Source: Patescibacteria group bacterium (GTDB lineage: Bacteria; Patescibacteriota; Patescibacteriia; Magasanikbacterales; GWA2-37-8). Taken from it: 64,000 nt of DNA. Under the pieces are notes generated by a model. That model searched no databases, was not told the origin of the DNA, and was given only the letters and a program-made list of their open reading frames with translations. Location of the stretch: NCBI GenBank assembly GCA_022710645.1, contig JAKLGL010000001.1, positions 343,296 through 407,295 on the forward strand. Reading direction: 5' to 3'. Positions within the stretch are counted from its first letter, which is position 1; every line of letters starts with the position of its first letter. A program made the position numbers and the translations under genes. Shown here one piece after another: positions 1,720-61,600 of this stretch.

Positions 1720-4539
1720 CTATTTCAAATACTTTCCCGTCCAACTCTTTTTGGACTTTAATATATCCTTAACCGTTCCGGCAGCTACCAATTCCCCGCC
1801 TCGTTTTCCGCCTTCCGGGCCCAATTCTATTACCCAATCGGAGTTTTTAATAACATCCAAATTATGTTCAATTATCAAAATAGTATTACCTTTTTCCACC
1901 AATTGTTTCAAGACTAATAATAATCTTTTTATATCTTCAAAATGCAAGCCTGTAGTCGGTTCATCTAAAATATAAAGAGTTTTCCCTGTGGAAGCGCGCG
2001 CCAATTCGGTTGCCAATTTTATTCTTTGCGCTTCACCGCCCGAGAGTGTGGTGGCCGGCTGACCAAGCTCCAAATAACCCAATCCAACTTGACGTAAAAC
2101 GTTTAATTTATCGGCTATTTGTCTTTGATCCACAAAAAACTTGTAAGCTTCTTCCACGGTCATTTTCAAAACTTCGGCAATATTTTTTCCTTTATAATGA
2201 ATTTCAAGCGCTTCCTGATTATATCGAGAACCGTTACAGTCATTGCAAGTCACAAAAACATCGGCTAAAAATTGCATTGGAATTCGGATATATCCTTCTC
2301 CGGCGCAAGTTTCACAACGTCCTCCGCCTTTGACATTAAAACTAAATTTTCCAGCATCATAACGTCGCATACGGCTTTCCGGCAAAGAAGAATATAAATC
2401 TCTAATCAATGTAAATATCCCGGTATAGGTGGCCGGATTACTGCGCGGGGTTCTACCTATCGGACTTTGATCAATAGCTATAACTTTATCTATATTGTCG
2501 ACTCCTTTGATTTCTTTATGTTTTCCGGGCTCGTCTTTGGCGCGGTAAAAATATTTGGATAAATATTTTCCCAAAATATCCACGACTAACGTTGATTTAC
2601 CGGAACCGGACACACCGGTGACGCAAACCAATTTAGAAAGCGGGATGTCCACGTTTATTTTTTTCAAATTAAAACCTTCAGCACCGATAATACTAATCTT
2701 TTTCTCCGCTGTTTTTTTGGTGTCTTTTTTCTCACGCAAATCATTCTCAAAATCGTCAGAAACACTAGCTCTTCCAAATAAATAATCTGCAGTTAATGAA
2801 TTCTTTGCTTTTTTGATCTCCGGTAAAGTTCCGGCTGCAATTATTTGTCCGCCATAAACTCCGGCTCCCGGACCGACATCTATCAAATAATCAGCTTCTT
2901 TCATGATAGCTGCATCATGTTCCACCACTATAACCGTATTACCAAGATCTCGTAAATATTTCAAAGTGTCTATCAATTTTTGGTTATCTCTGGCGTGTAA
3001 ACCGACAGAAGGTTCATCCAGCACATAAACCACACCGGTTAAACCGGAAGACAACTGCGTAGCCAAACGAACACGTGTCGCTTCTCCACCGGAAAGAGTG
3101 TTCATCGATCTGGTAAGATTCAAATAATTCAAACCTACGCGAGACAAGTTTTCCAAACGCGTCAAAATTTCTTTAACTATCGGCTCTACTATATTTTTTT
3201 TCGGCAATCCGGCTTTCTTCAAAAGATTTTTGAAAAAAATCACACTGTCTTCAATATTCATTTCCGATAAATCAGCGATATTGCGATCTTCAAATTTTAC
3301 CGATAAGGATTCTTTTTTTAATTTTTTACCTTCACACATTGAGCAAACCTGCTCTTTCATGTATTGTTCTATTTCTTTACGAATATAATCGGAATCCGTC
3401 TGAAGATGTCTTTGTCTGAGATCTTCCATGACTCCGGGGAAAACGATTTTTTTACCTTCAACTTCATAAAGTTCTTTACCTGTACCTTTCAAAATCAAAT
3501 TCATTATTTTGTCGGAAAAACCGGAAACCGGAACTTCCAACGAAAAACCATGCCTATCAGCCAAGGCCTTGAGTATCTTTTGGTAATATGTTTGATTTCC
3601 GGTTATACGTGTCCAAGGTTGAATAGCTCCTTCAAGCAAAGAAAGTCGCGGGTTAGGTATCACCAAAGCGGGATCTACTTCCATGGTTATACCAAGACCG
3701 GTACAACGAGGACAAGCCCCAAAAGGACTGTTGAAACTGAAATTACGTATATCAAGATCAGGCATGATTCTTCCGCATTTCATACAAAGTCCGACTGTTG
3801 AAAACATTTTATCCCCTTGATCCGTACCTATATAAATCAAGCCATTGCTTAAATCTAAAGCCGTTTCAACCCATTTTGTAGGATCTTGTCTTTTAATATC
3901 TGTTATCCTTCCGATAAGTAATTCTATTTGGAAATTTTTTTTCGGATCAAAAGCCAATGTCGCCAATTCATTTATTTTCATTACTTTACCGTTAACTCTC
4001 ACATGATCAAAACCCGATTGTTCAACTTTTTCCAATAAAACTCGCGGCTGCTCCACAATATCATTGCGAATCAAAGGAGAAAGAATTAAAATTTCTTTAT
4101 TTTTTCTACCCAACTCGCGTACCATTTCTACGATTTCTCCATATGAATAAGAGATAACTTCTTCTTCACAATCCGGACAATATTGTTTACCTGCGCGAGC
4201 AAACAATAACCTCATAAAATCATAAACCTCAGTAACAGTCCCGACGGTAGAGCGCGGATTTTGGGTATTGATACGTTGATCTATGGCGATAGTCGGTGAA
4301 AGACCTTCTACACCGTCAATATCGGGTTTATCGCGCACTTCCATAAATTGACGCGCATAAGAAGACAAACTTTCCGCATAACGACGTTGTCCTTCGGCAT
4401 AAATGGTATCAAAAGCCAAACTGGATTTTCCCGAACCTGACAAGCCGGTTATTACCACCATTTTATTTTTCGGAATATTTACCGAAATATTTTTGAGATT
4501 GTGTACTCTCGCTCCCCTTATTTTTATCATTTCTTGCAT
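1720..4539 (-). CDS. uvrA: excinuclease ABC subunit A
   Basis: 939 aa; two ABC ATPase modules ([25 protein letters not shown]), zinc-finger Cys clusters, LSGGEAQR signatures. Confidence 0.95.
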
Positions 4540-4545
4540 AAAAAT

Positions 4546-6420
4546 TTATTCTGTTTTAGGACAGGTTATGAATATATCCTCCATATTGACATCGTTAGAT
4601 TTCCAAACCGTTTTAAAATCATTTTTATAATCGTTTATTTTTTCTTTATTTTGTTTTATACAAACACCTTGAATGGAATAATTGTTATCTGTCAAAGACC
4701 ACTCTCCCGTATTTTGGGTGGCAATACTTGATTTTAAAAACACCTGATCTATCATCTTATAATCACAGTCAAAATCCAATTTTCCACTAACCGTATTAAA
4801 AGAAACGGAAGTGAGAGCGGAGGTAAAACAAGCTAAACCAGTATTACATTCATCATTTAAATTGCAAATTTCACCTTCTTTTTTTTCAACACCTCCGGCA
4901 TTAACACAGTAACCATAATTACCACATTGTCCCGATTTACAATCAGAATTTTCCGAACAAGGCGCTGTAAAAGAACCATCTGTACAAGCTTTGATTTCAT
5001 TTCCTCCGATACTTGTAAAATTAACACATTTTGGAGCTTTTTCACTACAATCAGAATCGCCATTACAAAAAGAATTAACTTTACCGGAACTACAAACTCC
5101 TATTTGACTATTACCGCTCCAGCATTGAATTCCTCCCAATCCGGGAAAAGCTATACATTTACCTTCGGCACAAGGATTTTTATCCATATCACAAAGTTCT
5201 CCTTCCTTCAAAGACATCGCTGTGCATTTGCCGGGAATAATTTTTTTACTAGATATGGCTGCATCCACAGCATCAACAACCAAATCTCCAGCATAAACAC
5301 TGGTGCCACCGGCTGCAATCACGGCTGCAGACTTTGCTTTATTTGTCGCAACCCATTTCACACCATCCCAAGTCATTTTCCCTCCTGTCCAAAACCATTT
5401 ACCTCCTGTTTTAAAAGCTTCAACCAAAGCATTGCTTTTTACAGCTTCAGAAACCGATGTTTCCACCACCTCTTTAGCAATTTGTCTTCCGGTTTGTTCG
5501 GCAATAGATTGATTGACCAAATCAAACAACGTCGTCTGAACTGATTTGTTTTCTAACACGCCTTTTACAGAAATCTGCTGCGAAGATATTTTTAAAGCTT
5601 GAGACAAAGATTTTCTTGCTACCACTCCGGCCGCACCCTCAATCACACCACTTCCTCCGGTTGCCAAAAAAGCCACTGTTTCGCCTATTAACTCGGCAGC
5701 TTTAGCGCAAGGACAACTTCTCTCGTCTCCAATACCGCAACTTGCAACACCCATAGCAGTACAGAAAAATTTAACATCACCTTGGCTATTATTTTCACAA
5801 GCTACGGAACTCTCCGAACCTGAAGAGGCATCGCAAAATTCTCCCGGTTCAACGACTATTACAGAAGGTCTTATCATATAAACCTGTGGCAATCGCAAAT
5901 TTATAGTATTGGGATTAATCATGCCTAAAACCGTATATGACATATAAGCCAAAGCCAAACCTATAACAGCTCCTACTATTTTCTTTTTGGCGCTTCCTAT
6001 CATTTCTTGACTTCCGGCTGAACCTACATATTGAATGCCAGCAACGATAATCATTACCGCGGCCAAAATTCCTAAAATTACCAGAGCATAATTATAAATA
6101 GTTTTGATATAATCTCCAATATTGGAAAATTTAATATTTCCGCCAAAAGAAACTTGAGTGGTTGTAATACTTCCGGCTAAACATTTACCAAATTTAGAAT
6201 TTTCATCACCATCTTTTGCATAACCCGGACAATTTTCTTCATCAATAATAAAACCTTCTCCCGGCCAATTATTTTTTTGTCTTTCTTTTATACAGTTTGT
6301 TTTAGTCCAACAAACGGGATTATTCTTTGCATCAGTAATTGAAACAGCCGTATCTGTAAACAAAAAAACTCCCGCCAAAAAAAGAGTTAGAAACGAAAAC
6401 AAAAATATTTTTTTAAACAT
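4546..6420 (-). CDS. secreted/membrane cysteine-rich protein of unknown function
   Basis: 624 aa; N-terminal signal peptide [21 protein letters not shown]; Cys-rich N-domain; two central hydrophobic helices; Gly/Ala/Ser-rich linker; C-terminal tandem Cys-rich modules (CxxGxC / DCxSGQC-like). Confidence 0.6.
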
Positions 6421-9796: not shown

Positions 9797-11605
9797 ATGA
9801 TTTTTAACAAAAATCCACAATCAGCGACAAAGCCCGGAACTCCGCAAAATGGCGGCCAAAGGTATTTTCGTCGCAACTCAGCCGGACGAAATCCGCATTA
9901 CAATCAAACGGCTCGTCCTTCTTTTGCGCGTTTTCGCGCAGAAAATCCAAAACTTCGTATTGCCGTACTTGGCGGACTTGAAGAAGTCGGTCGTAACTGC
10001 ACTTTGCTTGAATACGGCGATGATATTATCATCATAGATATGGGGCTACAATTTCCGGAAGAAGACATGCCAGGTATTGATTATATAATTCCCAACATGT
10101 CTTACCTTAAAGGCAAAGAGAAAAAAATCAAAGGCGTGATTATTACACATGCTCACTACGATCATATCGGGGGTATCCCTCATCTTATCCCGTTACTCGG
10201 TTATCCGCCTATTTTCGGTTTACCGCTTACCAATGCCATTATCAAAAAACGTCAAGATGATTATAAAAATCTCAAACCTCTTAATATTCACAATATCAAT
10301 ATTGACGATAAATTACGTTTGGGAAAATTTGAATTGGAATTTTTTCATTTGAATCATAACATTCCCGATACTATGGGTATTGTGATTAAAACTCCGGAAG
10401 GAAATATCGTTCATACTGGCGATTGGAAATTTGATTATCAACCAACAGGAGAAAAACCGGCCGATTTGCAACGTATCGCTCGCATCGGTAGTGAAGGAGT
10501 ATTGGCCTTACTTTCCGATTCTACCAATGCTTCACAACCGGGTCATCAAATGTCCGAATCTGAAATCAGTACCAATCTGGATGAAATAATTTCTAAAGCA
10601 CCAGGCCGTATCATTATCGGAACTTTTGCTTCTTTACTTTCTCGTATCAAACAAATCGTGGAAACTTGCGAACGTCACGGCAAGGTAATAGCGCTTGACG
10701 GTTTTTCTATGAAAAGTAATGTGGAAATCGCCAAACAACTCGGCTACATGAAATTTTCTCCAAAAACTCTCATCGATTTGCGTCATGTAAATAATTATCC
10801 AAATGAAAAAGTGGTGATTATCTGTACCGGAGCGCAAGGAGAAAAAAATGCATCTCTCATGCGTATTGCCAACGGCGAACACATGTCGGTAAAACTTGTT
10901 CCCGGAGATACGGTAGTATTTTCTTCTTCGGTTATTCCAGGTAATGAACGCACTGTCCAACGTCTCAAAGATACACTTTTCCGCAAGGGCGCGGAAGTTA
11001 TCCATTATCAAATGATGGACGTTCACGCCGGTGGCCACGCTAAAGCTGATGATGTAAAATTGATGATTCGTTTACTTAATCCCAAATACTTTGTACCGAT
11101 TGAAGGCAATCATTTCTTGCTTCATTACAACGCTCGCGTAGCCATGTCTATGGGTTTTCCCAAAGAGAACTGCTTTATTGCCGATAACGGACAAGTGATG
11201 GAATTCTCTGCGGGTACTGGAAAACTAACTAAAGAAAAAATCAATGCCGATTATGTATTCGTAGACGGACTCGGAGTATCTGATGAAACCAATATCGTTC
11301 TTCGCGATCGCCAAGTATTGGCCGAGGACGGTATGATAGTAGTCATTGCGACAGTTGATAGTAAAACCGGAAAACTCATTCAAAATCCGGATATTATTTC
11401 TCGCGGTTTTGTCTTTCTCAAAGAAAACAAAGAAATGATTGAGGATCTACGCCATCGCGTAAAAAAGATGGTTATTGATTCCGATCCTCTTTCTTGGGCT
11501 GACACTAATACTATTCGCAATAAGATTCGCGATTATGTAGGGCAGTTTCTGTATTCAAAAACAGAGAAACGACCAATGGTGTTGCCGGTGGTGATTGAAG
11601 TATAA
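9797..11605 (+). CDS. rnj: ribonuclease J (metallo-beta-lactamase / beta-CASP RNase)
   Basis: 602 aa; HAHYDHIGG zinc-binding motif, beta-CASP region, low-complexity N-terminal extension. Confidence 0.85.
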   Translation: MIFNKNPQSATKPGTPQNGGQRYFRRNSAGRNPHYNQTARPSFARFRAENPKLRIAVLGGLEEVGRNCTLLEYGDDIIIIDMGLQFPEEDMPGIDYIIPNMSYLKGKEKKIKGVIITHAHYDHIGGIPHLIPLLGYPPIFGLPLTNAIIKKRQDDYKNLKPLNIHNINIDDKLRLGKFELEFFHLNHNIPDTMGIVIKTPEGNIVHTGDWKFDYQPTGEKPADLQRIARIGSEGVLALLSDSTNASQPGHQMSESEISTNLDEIISKAPGRIIIGTFASLLSRIKQIVETCERHGKVIALDGFSMKSNVEIAKQLGYMKFSPKTLIDLRHVNNYPNEKVVIICTGAQGEKNASLMRIANGEHMSVKLVPGDTVVFSSSVIPGNERTVQRLKDTLFRKGAEVIHYQMMDVHAGGHAKADDVKLMIRLLNPKYFVPIEGNHFLLHYNARVAMSMGFPKENCFIADNGQVMEFSAGTGKLTKEKINADYVFVDGLGVSDETNIVLRDRQVLAEDGMIVVIATVDSKTGKLIQNPDIISRGFVFLKENKEMIEDLRHRVKKMVIDSDPLSWADTNTIRNKIRDYVGQFLYSKTEKRPMVLPVVIEV

Positions 11606-11707: not shown

Positions 11708-12406
11708 TTAATTTTCCACATTTTCTTCTTGTTCTTTAAATTCTTTTTCTGTTAAGATTCTGCCAAGATAATTTACTTTATTTTCTCGTAAATTATTTAT
11801 GAATTTAGAAAATTCTACGCCCTTATCAAAAGCTTCTGCTATATTTATAATATTTCGTTCACTTTCAGCTGTGTAATAATTACCAACCTGAACAAACTCT
11901 TTAGGAGAAAGATACACTTTTAAACTACCGGAATTTTCCATACCATCAAAAATATCTTTCTTTTCCTCGTGCCATTCAATAAAAGGAGTGAAAGTTTTTT
12001 CTTCTTCCTTAGTAATAACTTTCTGCTCTTCAGCTAAAAGAGGTAACCCAGTATTCAAATCTTGTCTACTTGTAAATTCATCTTTAAATTTAATTATATT
12101 ACTGATTATTTCAATAGACTTTTTACTTAAATCTTCATCCTGTACATCTCTAATTCCAGTACGAAAACATGGCAATTCCAACTTTTCTGCTAATTTTGCA
12201 ATTTTAATTAATTTATCTTTGGTATTTTTATCTAATTCACCACTATTTTTAACAAAATTATCTTTTCCTTTATAGAATTCGTCTTCCAAAGGTTCGTCTT
12301 TTTCAAATAAATTTTGCATTTCTTTTGTAAACTGTTTTAATAGTTCTTTTGTAACTTTTTCTTCTACTTGGTTTTGTAATTCTGGATTATGTCCTTTTTC
12401 TCCCAT
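11708..12406 (-). CDS. hypothetical acidic Lys/Glu-rich protein, paralog A1 (no recognisable domain)
   Basis: 232 aa; roughly 60 percent identical to the ORF at 13449..14171 (shared blocks LIKIAKLAEKL.LPCFRTGIRD, SGSLKVY.SPK, EFSKFINNLR..KVNY.GRILT.KEFKEQEE). Confidence 0.6.
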   Translation of the reverse strand: MGEKGHNPELQNQVEEKVTKELLKQFTKEMQNLFEKDEPLEDEFYKGKDNFVKNSGELDKNTKDKLIKIAKLAEKLELPCFRTGIRDVQDEDLSKKSIEIISNIIKFKDEFTSRQDLNTGLPLLAEEQKVITKEEEKTFTPFIEWHEEKKDIFDGMENSGSLKVYLSPKEFVQVGNYYTAESERNIINIAEAFDKGVEFSKFINNLRENKVNYLGRILTEKEFKEQEENVEN

Positions 12407-12440
12407 ATATTTAAAGTTAAATTAATTAATAACACCCTAT

Positions 12441-12471
12441 ATTCTACCCCCCCCCTATAACTTTTTGTCAA
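12441..12471 (-). promoter_or_regulatory. promoter of paralog A1: TTGACA-19-TAGAAT with a C9/G9 homopolymer in the spacer
   Basis: minus strand reads cgatttcgTTTGACAaaaagttataGGGGGGGGGTAGAATatag; -35 lies within the conserved box ctttttgtcaaacgaaatcg. Confidence 0.5.
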
Positions 12472-12562
12472 ACGAAATCGGTCTTCGGACTACAGGTTAC
12501 TGCCATTCCCGCAAATCCGCCGGTTGACGGAAGGAATTCCGTAACCAATAAATTACACTAAC

Positions 12563-12593
12563 AAAAAACTTCGCCGATTAAGCGAAGTTTTTT
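12563..12593 (-). terminator. intrinsic terminator downstream of the membrane protein gene
   Basis: aacttcgc-cgattaa-gcgaagtt + T-run; near-copy of the 11661 terminator. Confidence 0.55.
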
Positions 12594-12608
12594 AATTCAT
12601 AAATTCAA

Positions 12609-13181
12609 TTATATTTTTTCTATATCCAAGAAACATCCCTCCGGTCTAGTCGGTCCATCTTGTGGTGAATACCAAACTACTAAATAATCGTTTTTTAATG
12701 TTAGCTCAATGCTAGGTTTATCTCTAATTTCATCGGCTTCCATTTTATTATAACCATCTACAGAAATAATACCCCAGCTAAACCAGGGTCCACCCCAATC
12801 TTTGTCTCCAGGAACAGATACAGAAAGTTCAAGGTCAAGTTCATCATGATTTTTTGTCTCTTTAACAGAAAAGTACCCTTTCGAACATTTATCTGTTACT
12901 ACAACTCTAAATCCATACTTTGTATTTTCATACAACACTTGAGAATTTTCTTTTGTTGTTGTAGCAATCACTTTTTCTGCAGGTAAATTTATTTTTTCTT
13001 CCAAACTATTTATTTTATTATTAACCGCAGTAATATCATTTTGTTGATTTACCGCCAAAGTTTGCAATCCTAAACTAATTTGCTTTGATAAGCTGTTATT
13101 TTGTATAAATAAAACTCCGGCAATTATAACAAAACATAATATTGCCACGACTGAAAGGATAAAACTTCTATTTTCCTCCAT
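12609..13181 (-). CDS. hypothetical membrane-anchored protein (N-terminal TM, extracytoplasmic domain)
   Basis: 190 aa; TM segment SFILSVVAILCFVIIAGVLFI; sits between the two A paralogs and has its own promoter and terminator. Confidence 0.55.
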   Translation of the reverse strand: MEENRSFILSVVAILCFVIIAGVLFIQNNSLSKQISLGLQTLAVNQQNDITAVNNKINSLEEKINLPAEKVIATTTKENSQVLYENTKYGFRVVVTDKCSKGYFSVKETKNHDELDLELSVSVPGDKDWGGPWFSWGIISVDGYNKMEADEIRDKPSIELTLKNDYLVVWYSPQDGPTRPEGCFLDIEKI

Positions 13182-13218
13182 ATTTTTAATGATTAAAATA
13201 ATTTAAAAACTGTTTATA

Positions 13219-13248
13219 TTTTACAGCTCCCTGTAACTTTTTGTCAAA
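13219..13248 (-). promoter_or_regulatory. promoter TTGACA-18-TAAAAT sharing the conserved upstream box
   Basis: minus strand cgatttcgTTTGACAaaaagttacagggagctgTAAAATat. Confidence 0.45.
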
Positions 13249-13270
13249 CGAAATCGGTCTTCAAGTTACT

Positions 13271-13376
13271 GTCATTCTGATCCGCCTCAGGCGGAGAAAA
13301 ACCTGCCTGCCGGCAGGCAGGTCTGCAATAAGCAATTATTTTACTTGCAGATCCTTCGTCTACGACTCAGGATGAC
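13271..13376. repeat. MITE-like palindromic element copy A (TIR GTCATTCTGA / TCAGGATGAC)
   Basis: 106 bp; terminal inverted repeats; internal palindromes ccgcctcaggcgg and cctgcctgccggcaggcagg; same family at 14264, 44562, 45306. Confidence 0.7.
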
Positions 13377-13395
13377 AAAAACACCTAAAACAAAT

Positions 13396-13433
13396 AAAAA
13401 ACTTCGTCCACCAACTGGCGGACGAAGTTTTTT
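13396..13433 (-). terminator. intrinsic terminator downstream of paralog A2
   Basis: cttcgtcc-(10 nt loop)-ggacgaag + T-run. Confidence 0.5.
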
Positions 13434-13448
13434 AATACACAAATCTTT

Positions 13449-14171
13449 TTAATTTTTTACTTTTTCTTCTTGTTCTTTAAATTCTTTATCTGTTAAAATT
13501 CTGCCAAAATAATTTACTTTAGTTGCTCGTAAATTATTTATAAACTTAGAAAATTCTACATCTTGATTCAACATCTCTGCTATATTTATAGTTTCCTGAT
13601 GACTTTCGGATATGTAATAATCACCAACTTGGATAATATCTTTGGGAGAAAAATACACTTTTAAACTACCTGACTCTTCCATATATCCACCGAGAGCATC
13701 TACGTCTTCTTTGTTCCATTCAATAAAAGGAATAAAAGATCTTTCTTCTTCATTAACAATGACTTCCTGTTCTTTCAATGAAATAGGAAATCCTTCTGAA
13801 TCTTGTCTGTTTGTAAATTCATTTTTAAATTTAATTTTATCATTAATTACTTCAATAGAATTTTTACTTAAATCTTCATCTCGTCTATCTCTGATTCCAG
13901 TACGAAAACATGGCAATCCTAACTTTTCCGCTAATTTTGCAATTTTAATTAATTTATCTTTGGCATTTTTATCTAATTTACCATCATTTTTAACAAGATC
14001 ATTTTCTCCTTGATAAAATTCGTCTGCCAAAGGTTCTTCCTCTTCAAAAAAACTTTGCATTTCTTCTGCAAGCTGTTTTAATAATTCTTTTTTTCTTTCC
14101 TCTTCTCTTTTAGAATCAATTTCTTTTTCCGTAGCTTTCCCTGGCTCAAAACCTGGTTTTCTCTCTACCAT
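13449..14171 (-). CDS. hypothetical acidic Lys/Glu-rich protein, paralog A2
   Basis: 240 aa; paralog of 11708..12406. Confidence 0.6.
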   Translation of the reverse strand: MVERKPGFEPGKATEKEIDSKREEERKKELLKQLAEEMQSFFEEEEPLADEFYQGENDLVKNDGKLDKNAKDKLIKIAKLAEKLGLPCFRTGIRDRRDEDLSKNSIEVINDKIKFKNEFTNRQDSEGFPISLKEQEVIVNEEERSFIPFIEWNKEDVDALGGYMEESGSLKVYFSPKDIIQVGDYYISESHQETINIAEMLNQDVEFSKFINNLRATKVNYFGRILTDKEFKEQEEKVKN

Positions 14172-14263: not shown

Positions 14264-14352
14264 GTCATCCTGAGTGAAACGAAGGATCTCTTAAACAGTG
14301 CTTTGGAAAATAAGTTTAACTATAAGGGATTCTTCGCTGCGCTCAGAATGAC
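14264..14352. repeat. MITE-like palindromic element copy B
   Basis: 89 bp; gtcatcctgag...gctcagaatgac termini; internal cgaaggatc / gattcttcg blocks shared with other copies. Confidence 0.65.
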
Positions 14353-14375
14353 ACGTGGGCACGCTCTAAAACAAC

Positions 14376-14405
14376 AAAAACACCCATTGTCGGGTGTTTT
14401 TGTTA
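14376..14405 (-). terminator. intrinsic terminator at the 3' end of the putative RNase P RNA
   Basis: minus strand AAAAACACCC-GACAAU-GGGUGUUUUUGUU. Confidence 0.55.
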
Positions 14406-14411
14406 TATTTT

Positions 14412-15210
14412 CATCCAAAGCTATAAGCCGAATTTCGTCTGTCCGTTGTCTAGTAAAAGACACTGGAGAGATGGTCATTTATCTGGTCGGACACATCGCT
14501 GTGCCGATCTTTGCGAGCTAACTTTCTGAATTCCGACAAGTCGGAAAACATTGCTCTTGCGCCAGGCAGGGTTTGGCACGTCTTTGGCATTACTGCCAAT
14601 CGAGTATGATAGCCCATATATAAGACTTTCACACACTTTTCACCTTTGGCGAGGAAAATTTAATTTTCCGAGTCAATCCCGCCCTTCTTTGTTCCTAATG
14701 TATTCCCTAATCTATCTTTAACCTTTCTCCAAGCTCCACCATATTGTTTTAGAGCTTTTTCTCTATCAAGAGCATCTTGTTTATCAGCAAAAGCTTCATA
14801 ATAGATCAATTTCCAAGGTTTATATTGCTTTGTATAATCAGTACTTCCTGAGTTATGCTCATCAAGTCTTTTATCAGGACTGTGCTGAGTAAAGCCAATA
14901 TAAATTTTATTTGAAAATTGTAAACTTTGGAGAATGTAAATGAAATACATAATACTAAGAACAACGAAGGGCGGGATAACTCGCTGCTTGCGCAGCTCGT
15001 TAGTATAGTCTCTGTGCCACTTTCCCTTTTGCATTGTTACCAATGCAACGGCGGGTATTACCCGCTACCCCTTACCTTGCAAGTAAACGAGACCTCTGTT
15101 TACCAAGAAAAACTTGATTTACAGCCTGTCTATAATTGTTTACTTGATAGAGGCGTTCGGACTTTCCTCTCTAGTCGTATTCCGACTGGAGCGACCATCC
15201 GCTTTGAACC
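14412..15210 (-). ncRNA. rnpB: putative RNase P RNA (bacterial type) carrying a roughly 270-nt insertion in a peripheral helix
   Basis: Minus strand. P4 5' strand GAGGAAAGUCCGAAC (rc of 15154..15166) and P4 3' strand ACAGACGAAAUUCGGCUUAU (rc of about 14422..14441) covary as in E. coli (GGG/CCC replaced by GAA/UUC, bulged U kept). P1 is UCAAAGC/GCUUUGG. GNRA hairpins present; AGAUAAAUGAC resembles the P18-region AGAUGAAUGAC. Consensus promoter TTGACA-17-TACACT (15216..15244) puts the TSS at the P1 start. Terminator hairpin at 14376..14405. Confidence 0.55.
14660..14950 (-). CDS. GIY-YIG nuclease superfamily protein (YhbQ/UPF0213-like), nested inside the putative RNase P RNA
   Basis: MYFIYILQS...KIYIGFTQHSPDKRLDEHNSG...WKLIYYEAFADKQDALDREKALKQYGG matches the GIY/YIG/R/E core of the YhbQ family; start chosen at the Met that aligns with family N-termini. 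Longer ORF to 15043 rejected. Confidence 0.6.
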   Translation of the reverse strand: MYFIYILQSLQFSNKIYIGFTQHSPDKRLDEHNSGSTDYTKQYKPWKLIYYEAFADKQDALDREKALKQYGGAWRKVKDRLGNTLGTKKGGIDSEN

Positions 15211-15215
15211 TTACC

Positions 15216-15244
15216 AGTGTAGCACATTTTAAGGATTTTGTCAA
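15216..15244 (-). promoter_or_regulatory. promoter TTGACA-17-TACACT for the putative rnpB
   Basis: minus strand TTGACAaaatccttaaaatgtgcTACACT; TSS predicted about 7 nt downstream, at the P1 start. Confidence 0.5.
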
Positions 15245-15553
15245 GGGTATGACGACATTTTTTGGCTAAAAATAGCATAAAAAACTCAAATCTCAAAACG
15301 CAAAAGTCAAAACTACAGCCTTAAATGTCAGGGCTGGACAAGTTTTAAGGTTTTGAACTGTGGCTTTGAGCTTTGACACTTGAGTTTTGAGATAAGCCCC
15401 TTTTCTCTTTGACTAAAACCCAAATCTATAATAAAATAACAATAATTTCAATTAATCTTTTCCATACTTCTATATATCGCTTGCTTCGCAATGATATAGG
15501 CTCATTCGCTCAAAAATATTTATAAATAAACATTTTATTCACTCATTTAGCTT

Positions 15554-16972
15554 ATGAAACGTTTTGAACTTTTTTTCACTTTTCTTCAACTTCCCCTAGA
15601 TTATCTCATGATTGTTTTGGCCGGATTTTCCGCTTACAGTTTACGCTATACCGAATTTGTCAAAAGTATCCGTCCGATAATGTTTAATTTATCTTGGCAA
15701 AATTATTGGCCCATAGTGCTCTTTGTAGCCGCGGTTTGGGTAGTTATTTTCGCTTTTTCCGGACTTTACAACACTGACCTTAATCGTCGAATATTGAAAG
15801 ATATCAACCGTATCTTTTTCGCTTGCGCCACCGGTTTTGCCGGTATCACGATTTATGTTTTTTTTACTTTGCAAAAATTTGATTCTCGCTTTTTAGTGTT
15901 GATGGGTTGGATTTTAGCGTTCTTTTATGTAGTTTTTATCAGAGCAATAATTCGCGGAATAAAAATTTTTCTCTATAGCAAAGGATTCGGTTTGCGCAAA
16001 ACCATTGTTATAGGTTCACAAAATATAGCTTCACGTATTATAGATAATATCAATAATCGTCCGGCCCTTGGTTATAAAATAGTAGGCAATTTTGACACCT
16101 TCAACGAACAAATCGCCGTGCAAATTAAAAAATTAAAACCCGATGATATTATTTTTGCCGATCCAAAAGCCAATCAAGACGAAGCTCTCTCCGCTATTGA
16201 TTTTGCCAATGAAAACCACTTATCTTTCAAATATTCCGCCGACCTACTTGATACCATCACCACCAATATTTCCGTTAGTACAATAGACGATATTCCGATA
16301 ATAGAGTTAAAACGAACAAAATTATCCGCTTGGGGTAGAATTTTCAAAAGGATAATGGATATTATCGGAAGTTTTATTTTGATAATTTTATCTTCACCTG
16401 TTTATTTACTAGTTTCTTTGATAATTTTGATAGAAACCGGCAGACCGGTAGTTTACAAAAATGAACGTGTCGGGCAAAATGGTAAAAACTTTTTTACATA
16501 TAAGTTTCGTTCCATGTATCAAAAATACTGCACCGGCGCGCAATTTGGGGCTCAAGGTCAAGAAGCTTTGGAAAAAGAAAAAGAATTGATAAAAGAATTG
16601 AGCATAAAAAAAGGTCCGGTTTACAAAATAGCCAATGATCCGCGTGTTACTCCTTTTGGCCGTTTTATTCGCCGCTGGAGCTTGGACGAATTTCCGCAAT
16701 TTTTTAACGTTTTCATCGGCAATATGAGTTTAGTCGGACCACGACCTCATCAACCCCGCGAAGTGGAAAAATACAAAAAACATCACAAAATCGTATTGGC
16801 TATCAAGCCGGGTATCACCGGTTTGGCCCAAATTTCCGGACGCAGTGATTTGAGTTTTGAAGACGAAGTGCGTTTGGATACTTTTTATATTGAAAACTGG
16901 AGATTACTTTTGGACTTGATAATTCTCTTTAAAACACCATTTGTGGTTTTGAGTAGAAAAGGAGCGAAATAA
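15554..16972 (+). CDS. polyprenyl-phosphate sugar phosphotransferase (WbaP/CpsE-like initiating enzyme)
   Basis: 472 aa; N-terminal TM bundle; C-terminal bacterial sugar transferase domain ([16 protein letters not shown]...[24 protein letters not shown]). Confidence 0.8.
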
Positions 16973-54433: not shown

Positions 54434-55237
54434 ATGCCGATCAAGAAAAATATTATTAAAATCAAAAAGCAAAATTTACGAGAACTTCCTGAAATAGCGG
54501 AGCGTAATTTTGAAATTTTAGAAGAAAAAATCGGTATTAAATTCAAAAATTTTGAATATCTAGTTCAAGCGTTTGTCCATCGTTCTTATCTCAACGAACA
54601 TCATGATTTTCCTCTTTCTCACAATGAACGACTGGAGTTTTTGGGTGATGCGGTGGTTGAACTCATTGTAACCGAACATCTTTTCAATGAATACGGTAAC
54701 CCCGAGGGCGAGCTAACCAATTGGCGCGCAGCTTTGGTAAACGCCAAAATCCTCTCCTCTATCGCCTATGAGATAGGCACTGAACCATTTCTCTTTTTGA
54801 GTCACGGCGAATCCAAAGACGCCGGCACCAAAGCTCGCGATTATATCATGGCCAATTTGTTTGAAGCGCTGGTCGGGGCGATTTATCTAGATCAAGGATA
54901 TGAAGCTACTACTAAATTTTTACAAACCTGGGTATTGCCAAAATTACCCTATATTTTAGAAAATGGCTTATATTTGGACCCTAAAAGCAGGTTCCAAGAA
55001 AGCGCTCAGGAGCTGGTTGGAGTAACGCCGACTTACAAAGTTATCAGTGAAGAAGGTCCGGATCATGCCAAAAATTTCAAAGTCGGAGTTTATCTGGACA
55101 AAGAATTGGTGGCCGAAGGAAACGGCACCAGCAAACAAGAGGCTCAAACAGAAGCTGCAGAAATAGCACTCAAAACCAAAGGATGGAAAGGCCCGAAGAT
55201 AGATATTATTAAGAGAAAATCTGGTGATCCTATTTAA
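54434..55237 (+). CDS. rnc: ribonuclease III
   Basis: RNase III signature ERLEFLGDAVVELIVTEHLF plus C-terminal dsRBD. Confidence 0.85.
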   Translation: MPIKKNIIKIKKQNLRELPEIAERNFEILEEKIGIKFKNFEYLVQAFVHRSYLNEHHDFPLSHNERLEFLGDAVVELIVTEHLFNEYGNPEGELTNWRAALVNAKILSSIAYEIGTEPFLFLSHGESKDAGTKARDYIMANLFEALVGAIYLDQGYEATTKFLQTWVLPKLPYILENGLYLDPKSRFQESAQELVGVTPTYKVISEEGPDHAKNFKVGVYLDKELVAEGNGTSKQEAQTEAAEIALKTKGWKGPKIDIIKRKSGDPI

Positions 55238-55626: not shown

Positions 55627-58600
55627 TTATTCCACAGGAACATCTACCGGCGTTTCAACTGGATCTACAGGATCTTCAACCGGCGGTTCTTCCGGAGCTG
55701 GTGCCGGTTCTTCTACCGGCGGTGTCTCTATCACAGGTTCTGTCGGAGTTTCCACCGGAGGCGTTTCTTCTACCGGAGGTGTTGATGTCCCTGACGGCAT
55801 AGCCGGAGTAGATTCACCACTACTTCCGCTTTGCGGGATATTTATCAACGGATTAAAGTCCAAATAAAAATCTTTTAATAGTTGTATACTACCGTCAGAA
55901 CTGTGTATTTTCGTATCATCCTCCACCACATAGGCTTGCCAATTGAATAACACGTTATCTATTGCCTGCTCAACAAGCGAGATTTCAAATCCGCGAGTCG
56001 TCACATTTTGTAATTTCCATCGTCCGTCAAAACCAAGAGGGGTAACACCCATCATCGGCGGTACGGCATATTCACCGTCAAAATCCACTTGTACCAAACT
56101 GTCGCCCGCTTTTATTTGCGCCATACCAAAAATATTTTTCTCAATATATTCCGGAATTTCTTCCACAATTTCTTCAATAACTGTTTCCGCCGAATCATCT
56201 TGCCATACGCGATAATAATCAATATCAATCTGTTGCGCCCCGCCTCCGGCTACGGTGTTATTCATAATCATAGAAGTCAATCCGACAGTCGGAATATTGG
56301 TCGTTGCTTGACCGCAATAAAACCAATCCACTCCGTCAGTTGCATCGTTATCAATATAAAAATTTATCTCTCCCGTCCCGTCACCATTACTGGAAACTAC
56401 TTCTATTTTTGCCACCCCAAATACAGCAGTGTTGATAGCTTGTCCCGCACAATCAACAACAGTGGAAGCTCCGGCGCGACGCGAAACACCCTGCCACTCT
56501 CCGTTGGTGGTGTTATTGGTAAAATAAACACCGTTTAGAGGGTCTGCAGTTTGAGCTTGAGACAGATTACTCAAACCAATTCTAAATCGGATATTGGCAG
56601 TAACAGCGGACGGAGAAGCTTTGAAAGTTATGACAGGTAAATTGGCGGTATTAAAGACAAGATTGGCGGTTCCGGCAGTTGTAATCCCATGATATGCCAA
56701 ACAAGAGTTGGCGCCATTTGCCGCTTGCTGTCTGCCGATACCGTTTACTCCGTTTGCCACTGAACTCCAAGTACAAGCCTTATTTTCATCAACTGTGAAT
56801 TGTTGAAAATCACCCCAAGCATACAAAGTATCTGCAGTCACATTTCCTCTACCGCGCATAAATTCTTCGCCAAAATAAGAATTTTTTGCAATCAAAGCTC
56901 CTGTTTCCAAACTCATCCCAAAATTTTGCGATAAATATTTACCTTCCAGTAATATATATCCCGTGGAACTGTTGGTTATCAAAAGCACTCCTTCGTTGTT
57001 TGAGGATAAGGTAAGTAAATGAGACGGTGTTGATGTGCCTATACCAACTGTTCCTCCGTTTAAAATAGTAAACAAATTATCTCCTCCGCCATTAATGGCA
57101 TTATATATTGCTAATCCAGCATCAACAGGAGAATTAACTGCTGTTACTTCCAGACTATAATCACCTGTTTCACCAGCCCCCCAGCTAGTTACAACGATAT
57201 TATAAGTAGAGCTGGCATCATAAATAAACTCTAAATAAGAGTTTGTTCCTGTGCCTCCGTCATCATCAAAATAAGTTACTGATCCGGTGTCGGATGTTAT
57301 TTGCAAATAAGTATCAAAATTTCCCGAGGTTATAGAAACCGTCATATTTGAACCATTTGGAATCCCTGGAAATAAAGTAGCAATATTATAAGTGTCCATA
57401 TATCTACCGGTCCTATTGGGATTGTCCGGATCAGTAATTGCCAAAGCTCCGTTTATATTTGTTGAGGTCGGACCATAACTACCCGTAGATTCAATAGCTC
57501 CTATAGAATTTTGATTATTAATATTTATAGTTTTTGCCCATAAACGTAACCAGTTATGATCAAAATTACCCAAATTATAAGAACCGTTGGCCGGTATGAT
57601 ATTTCTGGCTGTCGTGGTTCCGCTGATTGTTAATAAGCTTGTTGGTGATTTGGTACCAATACCTACATATCCATTTTCAGCAGAATAAATTGACGGTTGC
57701 GAAGAGCTGGTCTGTACATAAAACAAAGGATAAGTGGAAGTTCCTTTTATACCAAGCATGGCTTCCGGGTTTTCATTATTAATGCCGATAGTTCCGGTTG
57801 ATCCAAGTGTCAAAATATTGGTAAATAAACCGGCGTCATTTACAAAATAAAATATAAATTTATCATCTTGATTATCGTCTCTTTTGGAAAGTTGCCAATA
57901 TTTATTATTTTGAGTTACAAAATTTAAATTAGTCGCTCCGGCTATAGTTTTTTGTAAAATTGTCATCGCTGGGCCAGAATTATCAGTTACAACGTGCAAC
58001 GGCGCCCCTGGTGTAGTAGTGCCAATACCCAGTCGACCATTACTATTATCCCAAAATAAATTTGAAGTGGCACTAAAAACACCATTACCATCGTTAAACT
58101 GAATCGCGCCAGCAATACCTTGGGCCAAACCAAGAGACGAAGTACTAACCCATTGACCGCGGCCAATACTATCAGATGACCATAATTGCCCAGCTGTCCC
58201 AGCACTATCTATAAAAAACTGACCATAATCAACTCCATTCATGCGATAAGTATCATTAGTGTCAAAACCGTTCCCTGCATACATATTGCCAGTGGTAGAC
58301 ACCCCGCCAGTTATAGACAAACCATTTGATAGTTCAAATTGTGTCGCGGAATTATTCCAACGCAAATAATTGTTTGTATTATTATTAAAATATAAATTAT
58401 TGTTTCCGACAGTGGAAAATTGAACATAATCTCCAAATAAAACCGGACCAGTTAATGTAGACGTGCCTGTAACATTATTTTTTCCGGTTATCAACACATC
58501 TCCTCCAAGCTTGGTATTGCCCAATACTTCAAATTTTACATTACTGCTGGTTGCGCTATTTCCTATCACTACCGCATAATTTCCAGCTAAATCCGGATAA

Positions 58601-61600
58601 GCTACATTTTCCGTGGTAGTTGTCCAAACACTATCTCCTCCACCTCCGGTCGGCCAAGTATTACGTGTAACTCCGCCCAAAGTTATAGAATCAGCAACCA
58701 AAATATCGGTTGTGCTAACCGTACCTAAAACATTTATATTATTCACAGTTAAATCGGAAATCGTAGTGGTGGCCAAAGTAGAATTCCCTAAAACATTCAA
58801 AGTCCCATCAACATACAGAGACGAACTGGCATAAATAATATCTTTGAACCAAACCGGCAAAGTCGTAGAAGTAGTCAAAACATTTCCACCATTGTGTGAA
58901 GTTAATAACCAATTGGCAGTCGCACCGCCAGCGCTAGCGAGCAAATTTCCGTTCCAATATAAATCTCCGCCAATGTTATAAATAGAATTGGTAGTAGTGG
59001 CTGAAGCCGTATCTCCGATATAGATTCCTCCATCAACATGTAATTTATTCAACGGGTCATACAATGCTTGACCTATACCGACATATCCCGTCCCGGCTTG
59101 TATTGTCAAAACATCATCGCCTTCAGCTCCGACAGAATCATCCCACAAGCGAAAATCCAAAGAGCTGGTAGGCATATACCAAGACCAACCATTGTCGTAA
59201 CTTCCGCTATTTACGCGGCGAACATAATGCCCGGCTTCTCCATTACCGTTGGCTACTATGGTAATATAATTGCGCGATGAAGAAGCGGTTGAACTTAAAT
59301 CACTACCCCAAACTTCCAAAAGATCATAAGGTGTGGAAGTGCCTATACCAAAGGAACCTTCGTAAGTAGAAAAAGATAAATTTTGTAAATCTCCATGACC
59401 GTTACTAATAAAATATTCCACTGTTCCGGAAACTCCGTCCGCCGTATACCTAACCGGGAAAATATCAGTGTCTGTTTTAAATTGATTGGAAGTTAAAACT
59501 ATATGATCATTGATTGTGTTTGCCGAACTGAGATAAACATCGTTTTCACTAATACCAGGCCCAGCCCAAGCAAAAGAGGAATTGGTTATTTGTACTCCGG
59601 ATAAAACCGTGGAACTGTTAACATAAGCCGGCATCAATTCAACCGAACCAGGAGAGACGGTCAAAGCCGTAACAAAAGCCGCATCAACATAAGTATTGAA
59701 ACGAGCATTTTCATGATTAAACATTTTTATTTTATTGCTTGGAAAAGAAGCGTAGATAGGAAAAGTGACAATCGCATCTTTTATTGTCGCTATACTACGA
59801 AAACTTTTATTATCTGTATAGAGCACAGACAATTCATCGTCACTATCATAAGTATTTACAAAAATTTCCGGATTATAAACATAGGCATTAGCAATGGTAG
59901 AGCTGGTAATATAAAAAATCGTATTTATCTTTGTTCCCGCTGTGCTGGTGGTCTGAGTGAAATTATATTTATTGGCGGTAAAACTTTCCAAGGTTCCGTT
60001 TTCTTGATAAATCACAGCTTGGATATTTTTACTATCATCTGTATATTCCGCTCCGACTTCCACGTTTTTCAAAACCGACTTACCGGCACTTTTTATCTCC
60101 ACTGCATAATCATCATAATTTTTGAGATTAACCATTGACAACACACTACCATAGGTCATGGCAAAAGTAACTTTACCGACAACAAAGGTATTGCAACCGG
60201 CACCTTTGACTACTACAAAATCTTTCATATCTAAATCTTCGGTAAATGTCCCGGCAGAAACAGAAACCGTGTAAGGATTAGTGGAAGATGATAATAGAGC
60301 GGCGGCATCTATAGCATTTTGAATAGTTTTTTTAGCTCTGGCTGGACTTTTTCCATCAAAACCATCTTTACCGCTTACTGCATTAACATAAATAATATTA
60401 CCCTCGATAAGCGCGTCGTTAATCACGATTTCCGACCAAATATTATGATTATTATTTATATTGCGAAGCTCCATGATACCGTTATTATCACGAAAACCAT
60501 ATCCTGCCGCCCCAGTCGTAGTACCAAAATTAATATATCTATTTTCTCCTTCTATAAATATATTTCCATTTACCGATAAAGGAGCCAAAGGAGTTGAAGT
60601 GGCAATACCCACATAGCCGTTCGTACCATTGATAATTAGGCTTCTTTGCTCATCTGTCGGGTCAATATCAAAAATAATATCTCCACCTGACGCCATAGTA
60701 GAGAAAAATAAATCACTAACTGAATAAAGAGCCATCACCCCGGAAATTCCCGGTAAACCATCATTCCAATTGGAAGAAAGAGCTGTCAAACCACCGAGTT
60801 TGCCTAAATCATTATACAAGCTGAACTCCGCCGTGGAAGAAACTCCGGAATTATTGTTGTGAATAGCCAAATTAAATTCGTTATTTGTATCACCATATAC
60901 ATAAAATGCTTTTCCATTCTCCGTAGTGGTATTTATAGCAATCAAACCGTTTTCATCTATAACTATTCTTTCTATTCCGGCTGTTTGAAAATGAATTCTG
61001 TTTTCATTTGGCGAAGCTTCGGTTTCTACTTTGGTGTCTCTATCCGAATCTTGGATATAAGTACTGGTGTTTCCTCCGATAACCGGTGAACCGTTCCAAT
61101 AAAGTTGTCCACCGAGATTATAAAGTGTATAAGCAGTCACCGCAGGAGAAGTACTACAAATGGATAATCCGCCAATCAAAGTTAAAGCATTTTTCGGAGT
61201 AGTTGTTCCAATACCTATAAAACCGCTACTGGAAACAAAAATATTACTGGTCGGTGCCCAAGAATCTCCATCCCAATACGCAATCTGACCTTGAGTAATG
61301 CCGGGATCAACCGGAGTTAACGGGGTTCCATTCATTAAATAACTACCAGTTATATTAATATCTCCGTCTACTGTCAATTGTGAATCCGGAGTGGAAGTGC
61401 CAATACCAACATTATCGCTACTACCTTGAACAAATAAAGTGTAATCATTGTCCGGAGTTTTAACTTGAAAATCATAATTTCCGCTACTAGTGTTGAAAAC
61501 AGCACCGCCTCGAAGAAATAACTGTGAATTAAACCCATCTAAAGTCATCATTTTATCATCAATCAAACTTTTTGCATCACCGGAATCATTGTTATAAAAA

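Follow-up and report, generated by a model that had tools for sequence, protein, structure and literature searches.

The DNA considered here is a stretch of 64,000 nucleotides (nt) from a Patescibacteria group bacterium, a member of Candidatus Magasanikbacteria (assembly GCA_022710645.1, contig JAKLGL010000001.1, forward-strand positions 343,296 to 407,295), which we refer to as the window and number from its first letter. On its minus strand lies rnpB, the gene for a bacterial type A RNase P RNA, and inside the P12 helix of that RNA lies a complete second gene, an open reading frame (ORF) for a small GIY-YIG nuclease. The ORF is bracketed by two arms that pair into a long stem, and we call arms and ORF together the cassette. 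A preliminary description of this DNA, made from the letters alone, had proposed a putative RNase P RNA with a GIY-YIG insertion in a peripheral helix, and that helix can now be identified as P12. Stem-closed GIY-YIG cassettes, together with ORF-less derivatives carrying the same arms, occur in P12, P3, J2/4 and the terminator of rnpB genes from at least five other lineages of the Candidate Phyla Radiation (CPR). Coordinates of the features are collected in Table 1.

The identity of the host gene was examined by a covariance-model scan of positions 14300-15300 with cmscan in E-value mode, which returned a collinear, full-length match to RF00010 (RNaseP_bact_a, model positions 1-367) at 84.7 bits (E 5.3e-26). 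The universal core is complete, comprising both P4 strands, J11/12 ACAGAGA, J12/13 GGUGAAA, J18/2 AGAUAAAUG and the P1/P2 closure; in the RF00010 alignment of the window gene, J12/13 appears as GGUGAAAAG and J18/2 as AGAUAAAUGAC. The structural elements that had been read from the sequence by eye hold up in this alignment: both P4 strands are present with their GGG/CCC to GAA/UUC covariation, P1 closes, the GNRA-type hairpins are there with GUAA loops, and the element described as P18-like corresponds to J18/2 AGAUAAAUGAC. The predicted fold of the whole RNA is far more stable than that of shuffled sequences (z = -9.6). The proposed TTGACA-17-TACACT promoter was also recovered by a promoter scan, with 10 of 12 consensus matches plus an upstream TG, and its hexamers are kept in an alignment with the relatives L001 and L003; the 5' end of the RF00010 match (15210) falls 6 nt downstream of the -10 hexamer. 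The intrinsic terminator described directly after the 3' strand of P1 is present as well, with the 3' end of rnpB corrected to 14408. The spacing between the two P4 strands is 731 nt, versus 228-534 nt in 120 rnpB genes from many phyla with the same P4 variant. That comparison set came from a motif scan with GAGGAAAGTCCGAAC, which was unspecific (at least 120 species in many phyla) and supplied one useful relative, L090.

A default Rfam gathering scan of the whole window reported two tRNAs and no rnpB. The score below 100 bits, the curated gathering threshold of RF00010, is probably due to two insertions, at the tip of P12 (about 330 nt) and after P5 (about 84 nt). Complete rnpB copies of orthologues with the same P12 insert score 92.3-92.8 bits (L003-L008 and L246). 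In L090, the nearest GTDB relative found and one without a P12 ORF, rnpB is 499 nt long and scores 139.6 bits, and its P12 is an unbranched helix of 100 nt; the rnpB of a more distant relative without a P12 ORF, L271, scores 119.7 bits. The insertion after P5 is not part of the cassette. It places 94 nt against 10 model positions and folds into a hairpin of about 66 nt in the minimum-free-energy structure, outside the Rfam consensus, and compensatory changes among the window, L001 and L003 mark it as a conserved lineage-specific helix. We would like to note that L271 has an ORF-less hairpin of cassette type at the equivalent position. Just downstream of the rnpB terminator, at 14328-14352 on the minus strand, lies a palindromic motif, GTCATTCTGAGCGCAGCGAAGAATC, which occurs once in the window; motifs resembling it (TTCTGAGTGAGCAAAGCGAATCGAAGAAT, GTCATCCCGAGCGGAGC...) are found within expanded rnpB helices of L137 and L185.

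Table 1. Features of the rnpB locus and the RNase III gene of the same window, in window coordinates.
Feature	Position	Strand	Basis or remark
rnpB promoter: -35 TTGACA (15244-15239), 17-nt spacer, extended -10 TG-TACACT (15221-15216)	15216..15244	-	
RNase P RNA gene rnpB, bacterial type A	14408..15210	-	RF00010 match; 803 nt, insertions included
P4 5' strand GAGGAAAGUCCGAAC	15155..15169	-	RF00010 alignment
Extra hairpin after P5, CAAGUAAAC...GUUUACUUG	15080..15146	-	Not part of the cassette
P12 base strand CGAG (14999-14996) and 5' side hairpin A CUGC-GCAA-GCAG (14995-14984)	14984..15000	-	Fold
Cassette 5' arm; core inverted repeat ATCCCGCCCTTCGTTGTTC at 14977-14959	14956..14983	-	
GIY-YIG nuclease ORF, 96 aa plus stop	14660..14950	-	Pfam PF01541
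Cassette 3' arm; core inverted repeat GAACAAAGAAGGGCGGGAT at 14694-14676	14669..14697	-	
3' side hairpin B GGAAAAU-UAA-AUUUUCC (holds the TAA stop) and P12 base strand CUCG	14650..14669	-	Fold
J12/13 module AAAGGUGAAAAG, marking the 3' end of P12	14636..14647	-	Alignment to model positions 148-160
P4 3' strand ACGAAAUUCGGCUUA	14424..14438	-	RF00010 alignment
Intrinsic terminator hairpin, then T-run	14373..14404	-	Scan reported the + strand (palindromic stem); T-run read on -
RNase III gene rnc	54434..55237	+	Pfam Ribonuclease_3 E 7e-26, Ribonucleas_3_3 E 7e-35, dsrm E 3e-14

In the predicted fold, P12 spans 15000 to 14648 as a four-way junction made of a base stem, two side hairpins and the long stem. 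Of the roughly 315 nt of the cassette, the ORF takes up 291 nt, and about 24 nt are non-coding. The helix closing the ORF had been described as near-perfect and 17 bp long; it is real, its 19-nt core inverted repeat (ATCCCGCCCTTCGTTGTTC/GAACAAAGAAGGGCGGGAT) scoring 16 versus a maximum of 10 in 200 shuffles, and it is longer than described, since 14983-14956 pair with 14697-14669 over about 28 bp, interrupted by a single bulge and a single mismatch. All five sequences of the alignment agree in the core of the 5' arm from TATCCCGCCC inward, and the 3' arm is invariant among lineages; the outer GT of the 5' arm (14980-14979) is AC in L003 and L006, where it mismatches the unchanged 3' arm. Side hairpin A has another sequence in L001 and L003 and is kept as a hairpin, with a P12 base pair changed from C-G to U-A; side hairpin B (14669-14653) reads GUCUCGC-UAG-GCGAGAC in L003, different in sequence and the same in shape. 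Since the side hairpins and the P12 base vary in sequence yet keep their pairing, the flanks of the cassette evolve as folded RNA. Where arms are imperfect, their defects are mostly G.U pairs on the sense strand, and the sense fold is then more stable than the antisense fold, at -46.9 versus -35.5 kcal/mol in the window, -46.5 versus -33.0 kcal/mol for the J2/4 copy of L191 and -33.2 versus -23.7 kcal/mol for that of L266. This indicates that the arms act as an RNA helix. No further copies of the cassette or of its arms were found within the 64-kb window.

GIY-YIG ORFs are classic cargo of group I introns, and it was therefore considered whether the insert is an intron of group I or II that carries a homing endonuclease gene and is spliced from the RNase P RNA. 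The Rfam scan of 14300-15300 returned no intron family at E<=10, in agreement with the earlier impression that the flanking helix does not resemble a group I core. Because 291 of the roughly 315 nt of insert are ORF, there is no room for a ribozyme core, and the flanks form a simple long duplex. GIY-YIG ORFs in CPR rRNA genes, as far as the survey PMC11270868 reports them in its main text, likewise all lie in non-intron insertions. We give the intron explanation next to no credence.

The ORF product matches Pfam GIY-YIG (PF01541) at 60.1 bits (cut-off 22.6, E 2.6e-16) over residues 1-72, and the catalytic residues Y5, Y18-I-G, R28, H32 and R63-E64 align and are invariant among homologues. The same sequence is deposited as HRY36586.1, a 'GIY-YIG nuclease family protein'. 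An NCBIfam search with the protein gave no match. The nearest solved structures, at weak similarity, are the UPF0213 proteins EF2693 (PDB 1ywl, E 2e-4) and BH0048 (1zg2, E 1e-3), in keeping with the UPF0213/YhbQ-type assignment of the preliminary description, which had also been right that an ORF fills the loop of the helix and overstated its length by one residue (97 for 96 aa). Start and end lie where they had been placed: the ATG is 5 nt past the 5' arm and codons 85-93 run through the 3' arm, with the stop in the 3' side hairpin. Among three lineages, the ratio of nonsynonymous to synonymous divergence (dN/dS) is 0.07-0.15 at dS 0.25-0.64, indicating purifying selection, and the last 13 codons, which double as a stem strand, have no substitutions. 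A chance ORF can be rejected on the Pfam E-value together with this constraint. A Shine-Dalgarno-like motif precedes only 3 of the 31 window genes with long ORFs, the starts being preceded by A/T-rich sequence instead. Within the ORF there is also a promoter-like TTTACA-16-TATATT (10 of 12 matches, 14897-14924 on the minus strand), from which transcription, if the site is active, would cover the 3' part of the ORF together with the 3' half of rnpB.

The rnpB-cassette arrangement is kept in three diverged lineages with conserved synteny. In relatives whose proteins are 93% and 89% identical to that of the window, rnpB carries the same insert at the same site and adjoins the same sugar-transferase gene. 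Two independent metagenome contigs of the lineage at 93% identity, L001 (ending at 3060) and L002 (ending at 1475), break 22-45 nt past the cassette ORF, in the 3' half of rnpB; differences between strains or a difficulty in assembling this locus may be the cause.

To place the cassette among related genes, we took P12 lengths from a sample of 119 rnpB genes from metagenomes that have the J11/12 motif in common. The P12 regions were compared by motif anchoring; MAFFT misaligned insert-bearing against insert-free rnpB. P12 usually measures 14-38 nt in this sample, with non-coding helices of 105-170 nt in about ten genes, and exceeds 300 nt in only two: L246, an orthologue of the window that carries the cassette, and the unrelated L224. 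The P12 of L224 holds a different GIY-YIG ORF of 96 aa, closed by a perfect 20-bp stem. Presence of the insert thus varies among related genes, P12 being empty in most of the 119 and occupied in few, and degenerate copies exist. Across 239 rnpB loci, in which rnpB makes up 6.9% of the sequence, four of six GIY-YIG matches fell inside rnpB (binomial P = 3e-4).

Stem-closed GIY-YIG ORFs occupy P12 in L224, L266, L272 and L273, and P3 in L229, L266 and L272. In L229, the ORF in P3 is closed by a perfect 19-bp stem abutting GAGGAAAGUCC, and P1/P2 still pair across the insert, at -33.0 kcal/mol versus -17.6 +/- 3.2 kcal/mol for shuffles. One gene may hold several copies. L191 has three stem-loops with nearly identical arms, at P3 (a decayed GIY-YIG pseudogene), at P12 (no ORF) and in the interval between the 3' strands of P2 and P4 (a short ORF remnant). 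In L266, P3 and P12 each contain an intact ORF, and the P12 arms recur at J2/4 as a hairpin without an ORF; a protein of L266 is identical to one of Parcubacteria bacterium GW2011_GWA2_39_18. In L271, a complete cassette followed by a T-run lies 35 nt past the 3' end of rnpB, which is the position of the terminator, and the gene itself contains two hairpins that have related arms and no ORF. L224 likewise has ORF-less hairpins with the same arms at other sites of its gene, as do L191, L266 and L271. For the clade of proteins ending in ...KTGEGER, the predicted stop codon is the UGA of the J12/13 motif GGUGAAA, and this was confirmed in L272 and L273.

The terminal inverted repeats of these cassettes, 16-25 nt in length, are common to copies: arms are shared across sites within one gene in L191, L266, L224 and L271, and the window arm CCCGCCCTT resembles the P3 arm of L266. 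Together with a homologue outside any RNA gene that has such a repeat (L012, below), these sequences show that the arms belong to the element. The window protein is nearer to homologues encoded beside tRNA genes (47-52% identity) than to other rnpB residents (32-41%), from which we conclude that P12 has been colonised repeatedly; a single clade of rnpB-resident proteins including that of the window can be rejected, as the sublineage of the window protein is not that of the other P12 residents. Compared with a transposon or miniature inverted-repeat transposable element, the cassettes have the terminal inverted repeats, but no target-site duplication was seen at the junctions read, and the sole ORF encodes a GIY-YIG nuclease and no transposase.

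Several other CPR rnpB genes also stand out. Long P12 hairpins of short degenerate tandem repeats (GGAATTTCCAATTTCC..., GAAATCCGAAATCC...) without an ORF occur in L152 (about 2460-3400, oriented by the motif), L225 and L241, and in L152 such repeats are also found at two further sites. The rnpB of L185, examined over 920 nt around J11/12, contains three or four hairpins that lack an ORF and have arms in common (CCCGTTCCAAATT...), some of them nested, and its distance from the 5' strand of P4 to J11/12 is 549 nt versus a median of 80. In L140 (motif at 5217, oriented), rnpB loses sense shortly past the 5' strand of P12 and is followed by an ORF of 181 aa resembling a methyltransferase; the 3' half of this rnpB was not found within 1 kb. 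Possible explanations for L140 are an insertion of larger size, truncation of the gene and a chimeric assembly.

Relatives of the nuclease also occur outside rnpB. The family is large, with 5287 clusters at E<=1e-3 and 2579 proteins at E<=1e-8; nearly all members are single-domain proteins of about 85 aa, and all named ones are from Patescibacteria. Free-standing genes of 83-88 codons were found near tRNA genes at L256 1317-1761, L262 1382-2023, L264 1356-1752 and L012 876-1233, with gaps of about 20-115 nt to the tRNA genes, and the L262 gene lies inside a cluster of four tRNA genes. A homologue in L012, which lies between dprA and topA and outside any RNA gene, is flanked by a 20-nt inverted repeat with the same 256-nt spacing as in the cassette, and the translated arms NPTHNL... 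and ...CKLCGG are conserved throughout one clade of homologues, that of L012 included. Inverted repeats are not a property of all homologues, as none were seen in L009, L256, L262 and the second L012 gene, and those of L264 are marginal.

These relatives raise the question of whether the nuclease is a domesticated host gene, serving for instance in DNA repair, for which rnpB and tRNA units are sites of strong constitutive expression and which no longer moves. A dN/dS of 0.07-0.15 over substantial divergence at a fixed position would suit such a gene, as would the sheer size of a family that consists almost wholly of single-domain Patescibacteria proteins, many of them encoded beside tRNA genes. 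The rnpB residents of other lineages point the other way: copies that are pseudogenised or internally deleted keep intact arms in L191, L266, L271 and L224, multiple copies are possible in one gene, and the separate sublineage of the window protein implies repeated colonisation of P12. Decayed copies, multiplicity and recolonisation together speak for a cycle of gain, decay and loss and not for a fixed host gene. We regard domestication as improbable.

The reading that we think likely is that the insert is a selfish cassette resembling an intervening sequence (IVS), lodged in P12; its own stem would provide or lengthen the host helix, and its gene would be expressed from the rnpB promoter. The cassette gene would be transcribed from that promoter within the ribozyme precursor, and the arms would pair in the RNA into a long helix that closes the coding loop and extends P12. 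As P12 is solvent-exposed and dispensable, the ribozyme core should still fold. We infer that the nuclease is translated from the rnpB precursor, for which no special ribosome-binding site would be needed in a genome that hardly uses Shine-Dalgarno sequences, and that it helps the cassette to spread or to persist at the DNA level, in a manner akin to homing. RNase III, acting in trans, may cut the long stem and free the mRNA; the cut would leave a nicked, base-paired, two-piece RNase P RNA held together by P12, as with the IVSs of 23S rRNA. The long duplex is a plausible substrate of the enzyme, and we would place excision by RNase III at, or a little short of, an even chance.

The main competing explanation is that the cassette is a retained expansion that is never excised, so that the mature RNA is about 800 nt long, with a P12 extension of about 350 nt, and this molecule, or its nascent form, doubles as the mRNA of the nuclease. 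That relatives tolerate large non-coding expansions of P12 (105-170 nt) agrees with this, as does the covariation of side hairpins A and B, which is expected of a stable folded junction; moreover, some CPR RNase P RNAs described in excerpts of PMC8172020 lack P12, which makes the helix structurally free. A near-perfect duplex of 20-28 bp is, however, a typical substrate of RNase III, an enzyme encoded in the window, and ribosomes on the last 9-10 codons would need to melt the helix that closes P12. We consider permanent retention rather unlikely. The preliminary description had offered an intervening sequence, a homing-type insertion and a dual-function RNA as options; the data favour a mobile, stem-closed, IVS-like cassette, be it excised or retained.

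A number of observations weigh against a selfish, mobile cassette in a working ribozyme. No target-site duplication was seen at the junctions read (L229, L191, L266 and L271) and the insertion sites share no flanking sequence, so neither classical homing nor transposition is demonstrated; an empty-site allele in the same species was not found. The 96-aa protein consists of the catalytic domain only and has no DNA-binding domain, unlike characterised GIY-YIG homing endonucleases, and site-specific homing is therefore not assured. A protein that benefits the host could equally show the strong purifying selection seen in the three lineages, which are related vertically. The stem of L003 has two mismatches in its outer 7 bp. 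Lastly, the rnpB score is below the Rfam threshold, and as the window covers only 64 kb of the genome, another rnpB or a protein-only RNase P may exist outside it.

These last two points would also suit an rnpB copy that is a pseudogene inactivated by insertion, with RNase P supplied from elsewhere in the genome. Nevertheless, all universal core motifs are preserved, as are promoter and terminator, the helices flanking the insert covary, and the arrangement is kept across lineages separated by dS of up to 0.64. Several unrelated CPR lineages carry cassettes at peripheral positions of the ribozyme, and sub-threshold scores are common in CPR RNase P RNAs according to excerpts of PMC8172020. A pseudogene is accordingly a very remote prospect in our estimation.

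In the surroundings of the gene, a Bac_transf sugar-transferase gene adjoins rnpB in the window (15554-16972), in L191 (from about 5016), in L266 (2633-3256) and in L271 (from about 2313); this adjacency spans distant CPR lineages, and the relative orientation varies. RNase J is encoded in the window at 9797-11605 on the plus strand, and also near rnpB in L003. Between rnpB and RNase J lie three hypothetical genes of 232, 190 and 240 aa (11708-14171, minus strand), where L003 has one ORF of 86 aa; no Pfam match was obtained for those of the three that were tested. Two of them have an identical 18-nt sequence, TAATTTAACTTTAAATAT, before the ATG, and the region is accordingly variable or has undergone duplication. 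Positions 55627-63789 of the minus strand are taken up by a very large ORF (2720 aa).

Insertions of a comparable kind are known from rRNA. Tsurumaki et al. 2024 (PMC11270868) report 30 GIY-YIG ORFs in insertions of CPR 16S and 23S rRNA, none of them in group I or II introns; according to the main text of that survey, the insertions are located on stem-loops, either at the top or at the base, occur sparsely at a number of scattered sites, and were first noted by Brown et al. 2015, and RNase III-type intervening sequences are suggested as possible in CPR. The cassettes described here resemble them in the phylum-level group, the protein family, the lack of an intron and the essential structured RNA that serves as host. 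They differ in that the host is rnpB, which, as far as the main text defines it, is outside the scope of that survey (PMC11270868). The term 'inverted repeat' is absent from the main text of PMC11270868. The self-closing stem, several sites per gene, ORF-less derivatives and the use of ribozyme nucleotides as a stop codon are the features that we describe for the rnpB cassettes. As non-intron GIY-YIG insertions are known in CPR rRNA, the kind of element is known and the host gene rnpB appears to be new.

The IVSs of 23S rRNA offer a second comparison, and their sites are helices 25 and 45. An example is the 23S IVS of Coxiella burnetii, which, in the account given in excerpts of PMC4990558, is 428 nt long, lies at a helix tip, contains an S23p ORF that is decaying and apparently untranslated, and is excised by RNase III. 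The present case is similar: a presumably selfish insert sits at the tip of a helix, its complementary ends pair into a long stem, it carries a small ORF, an RNase III gene is available, and the host RNA would tolerate the insert by working in pieces or extended. In contrast, the host here is RNase P RNA, the ORF is a nuclease under strong purifying selection, and excision is predicted only.

Well-known GIY-YIG homing endonucleases include I-TevI, encoded in a group I intron, and the free-standing Seg proteins of T4, among which SegB lies in the T4 tRNA cluster. The cassettes have in common with them the GIY-YIG domain, the association with stable RNAs, and a patchy distribution with degenerate copies that suggests gain, decay and loss. 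Unlike these enzymes, the cassettes involve no intron, encode a catalytic domain of 85-98 aa with no linker or DNA-binding domain, and are bracketed by inverted repeats at insertion sites without flanking homology. UPF0213/YhbQ-type proteins have the same size and fold class as the window protein; they are ordinary chromosomal genes, and we know of none inside RNA genes.

As for RNase P RNA itself, repeat insertions in P12 of the cyanobacterial RNA, non-coding ones, were reportedly described by Vioque in 1997. Lui, Nielsen and Arkin 2021 (PMC8172020) describe CPR RNase P RNAs below Rfam thresholds with helices extended or missing, which matches the sub-threshold rnpB and the variation in P12 length seen here; a coding insert is not mentioned in the excerpts of that paper. 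A literature search of incomplete coverage found no bacterial precedent for a GIY-YIG ORF, homing endonuclease or IVS in rnpB and returned only fungal mitochondrial papers and reviews; one of the former, a mitochondrial genome paper (PMC4894602), makes no mention of an insert in rnpB.

RNase P RNA is one of few universal ribozymes, and a protein gene nested within it, of which we found no report from bacteria, will be surprising to RNase P specialists. Next to introns and the IVSs of rRNA, the self-closing stem constitutes a third way for a selfish nuclease gene to reside inside an essential structured RNA, and its recurrence suggests a general, intron-free strategy for such genes. We tentatively propose to regard the stem-closed mini GIY-YIG cassettes as mobile elements of a class of their own, specialised for hairpins in the transcription units of stable RNAs: in rnpB (P3, P12, J2/4 and terminator), in tRNA clusters and probably in rRNA. 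The cassette explains why standard annotation misses rnpB in some CPR genomes, where a missing rnpB serves as a test of genome completeness. At about 315 nt, it is also a compact natural system for the sharing of a transcript between ribozyme and mRNA and for the existence of a natural two-piece RNase P RNA. If our reading is correct, a helix borne by the element replaces or extends that of the host, which would make insertion phenotypically silent without a splicing ribozyme and provide a functional alternative to an intron. The ORF-less hairpins left behind would then be a source of the helix expansions of RNase P RNA, and perhaps of rRNA, in CPR bacteria.

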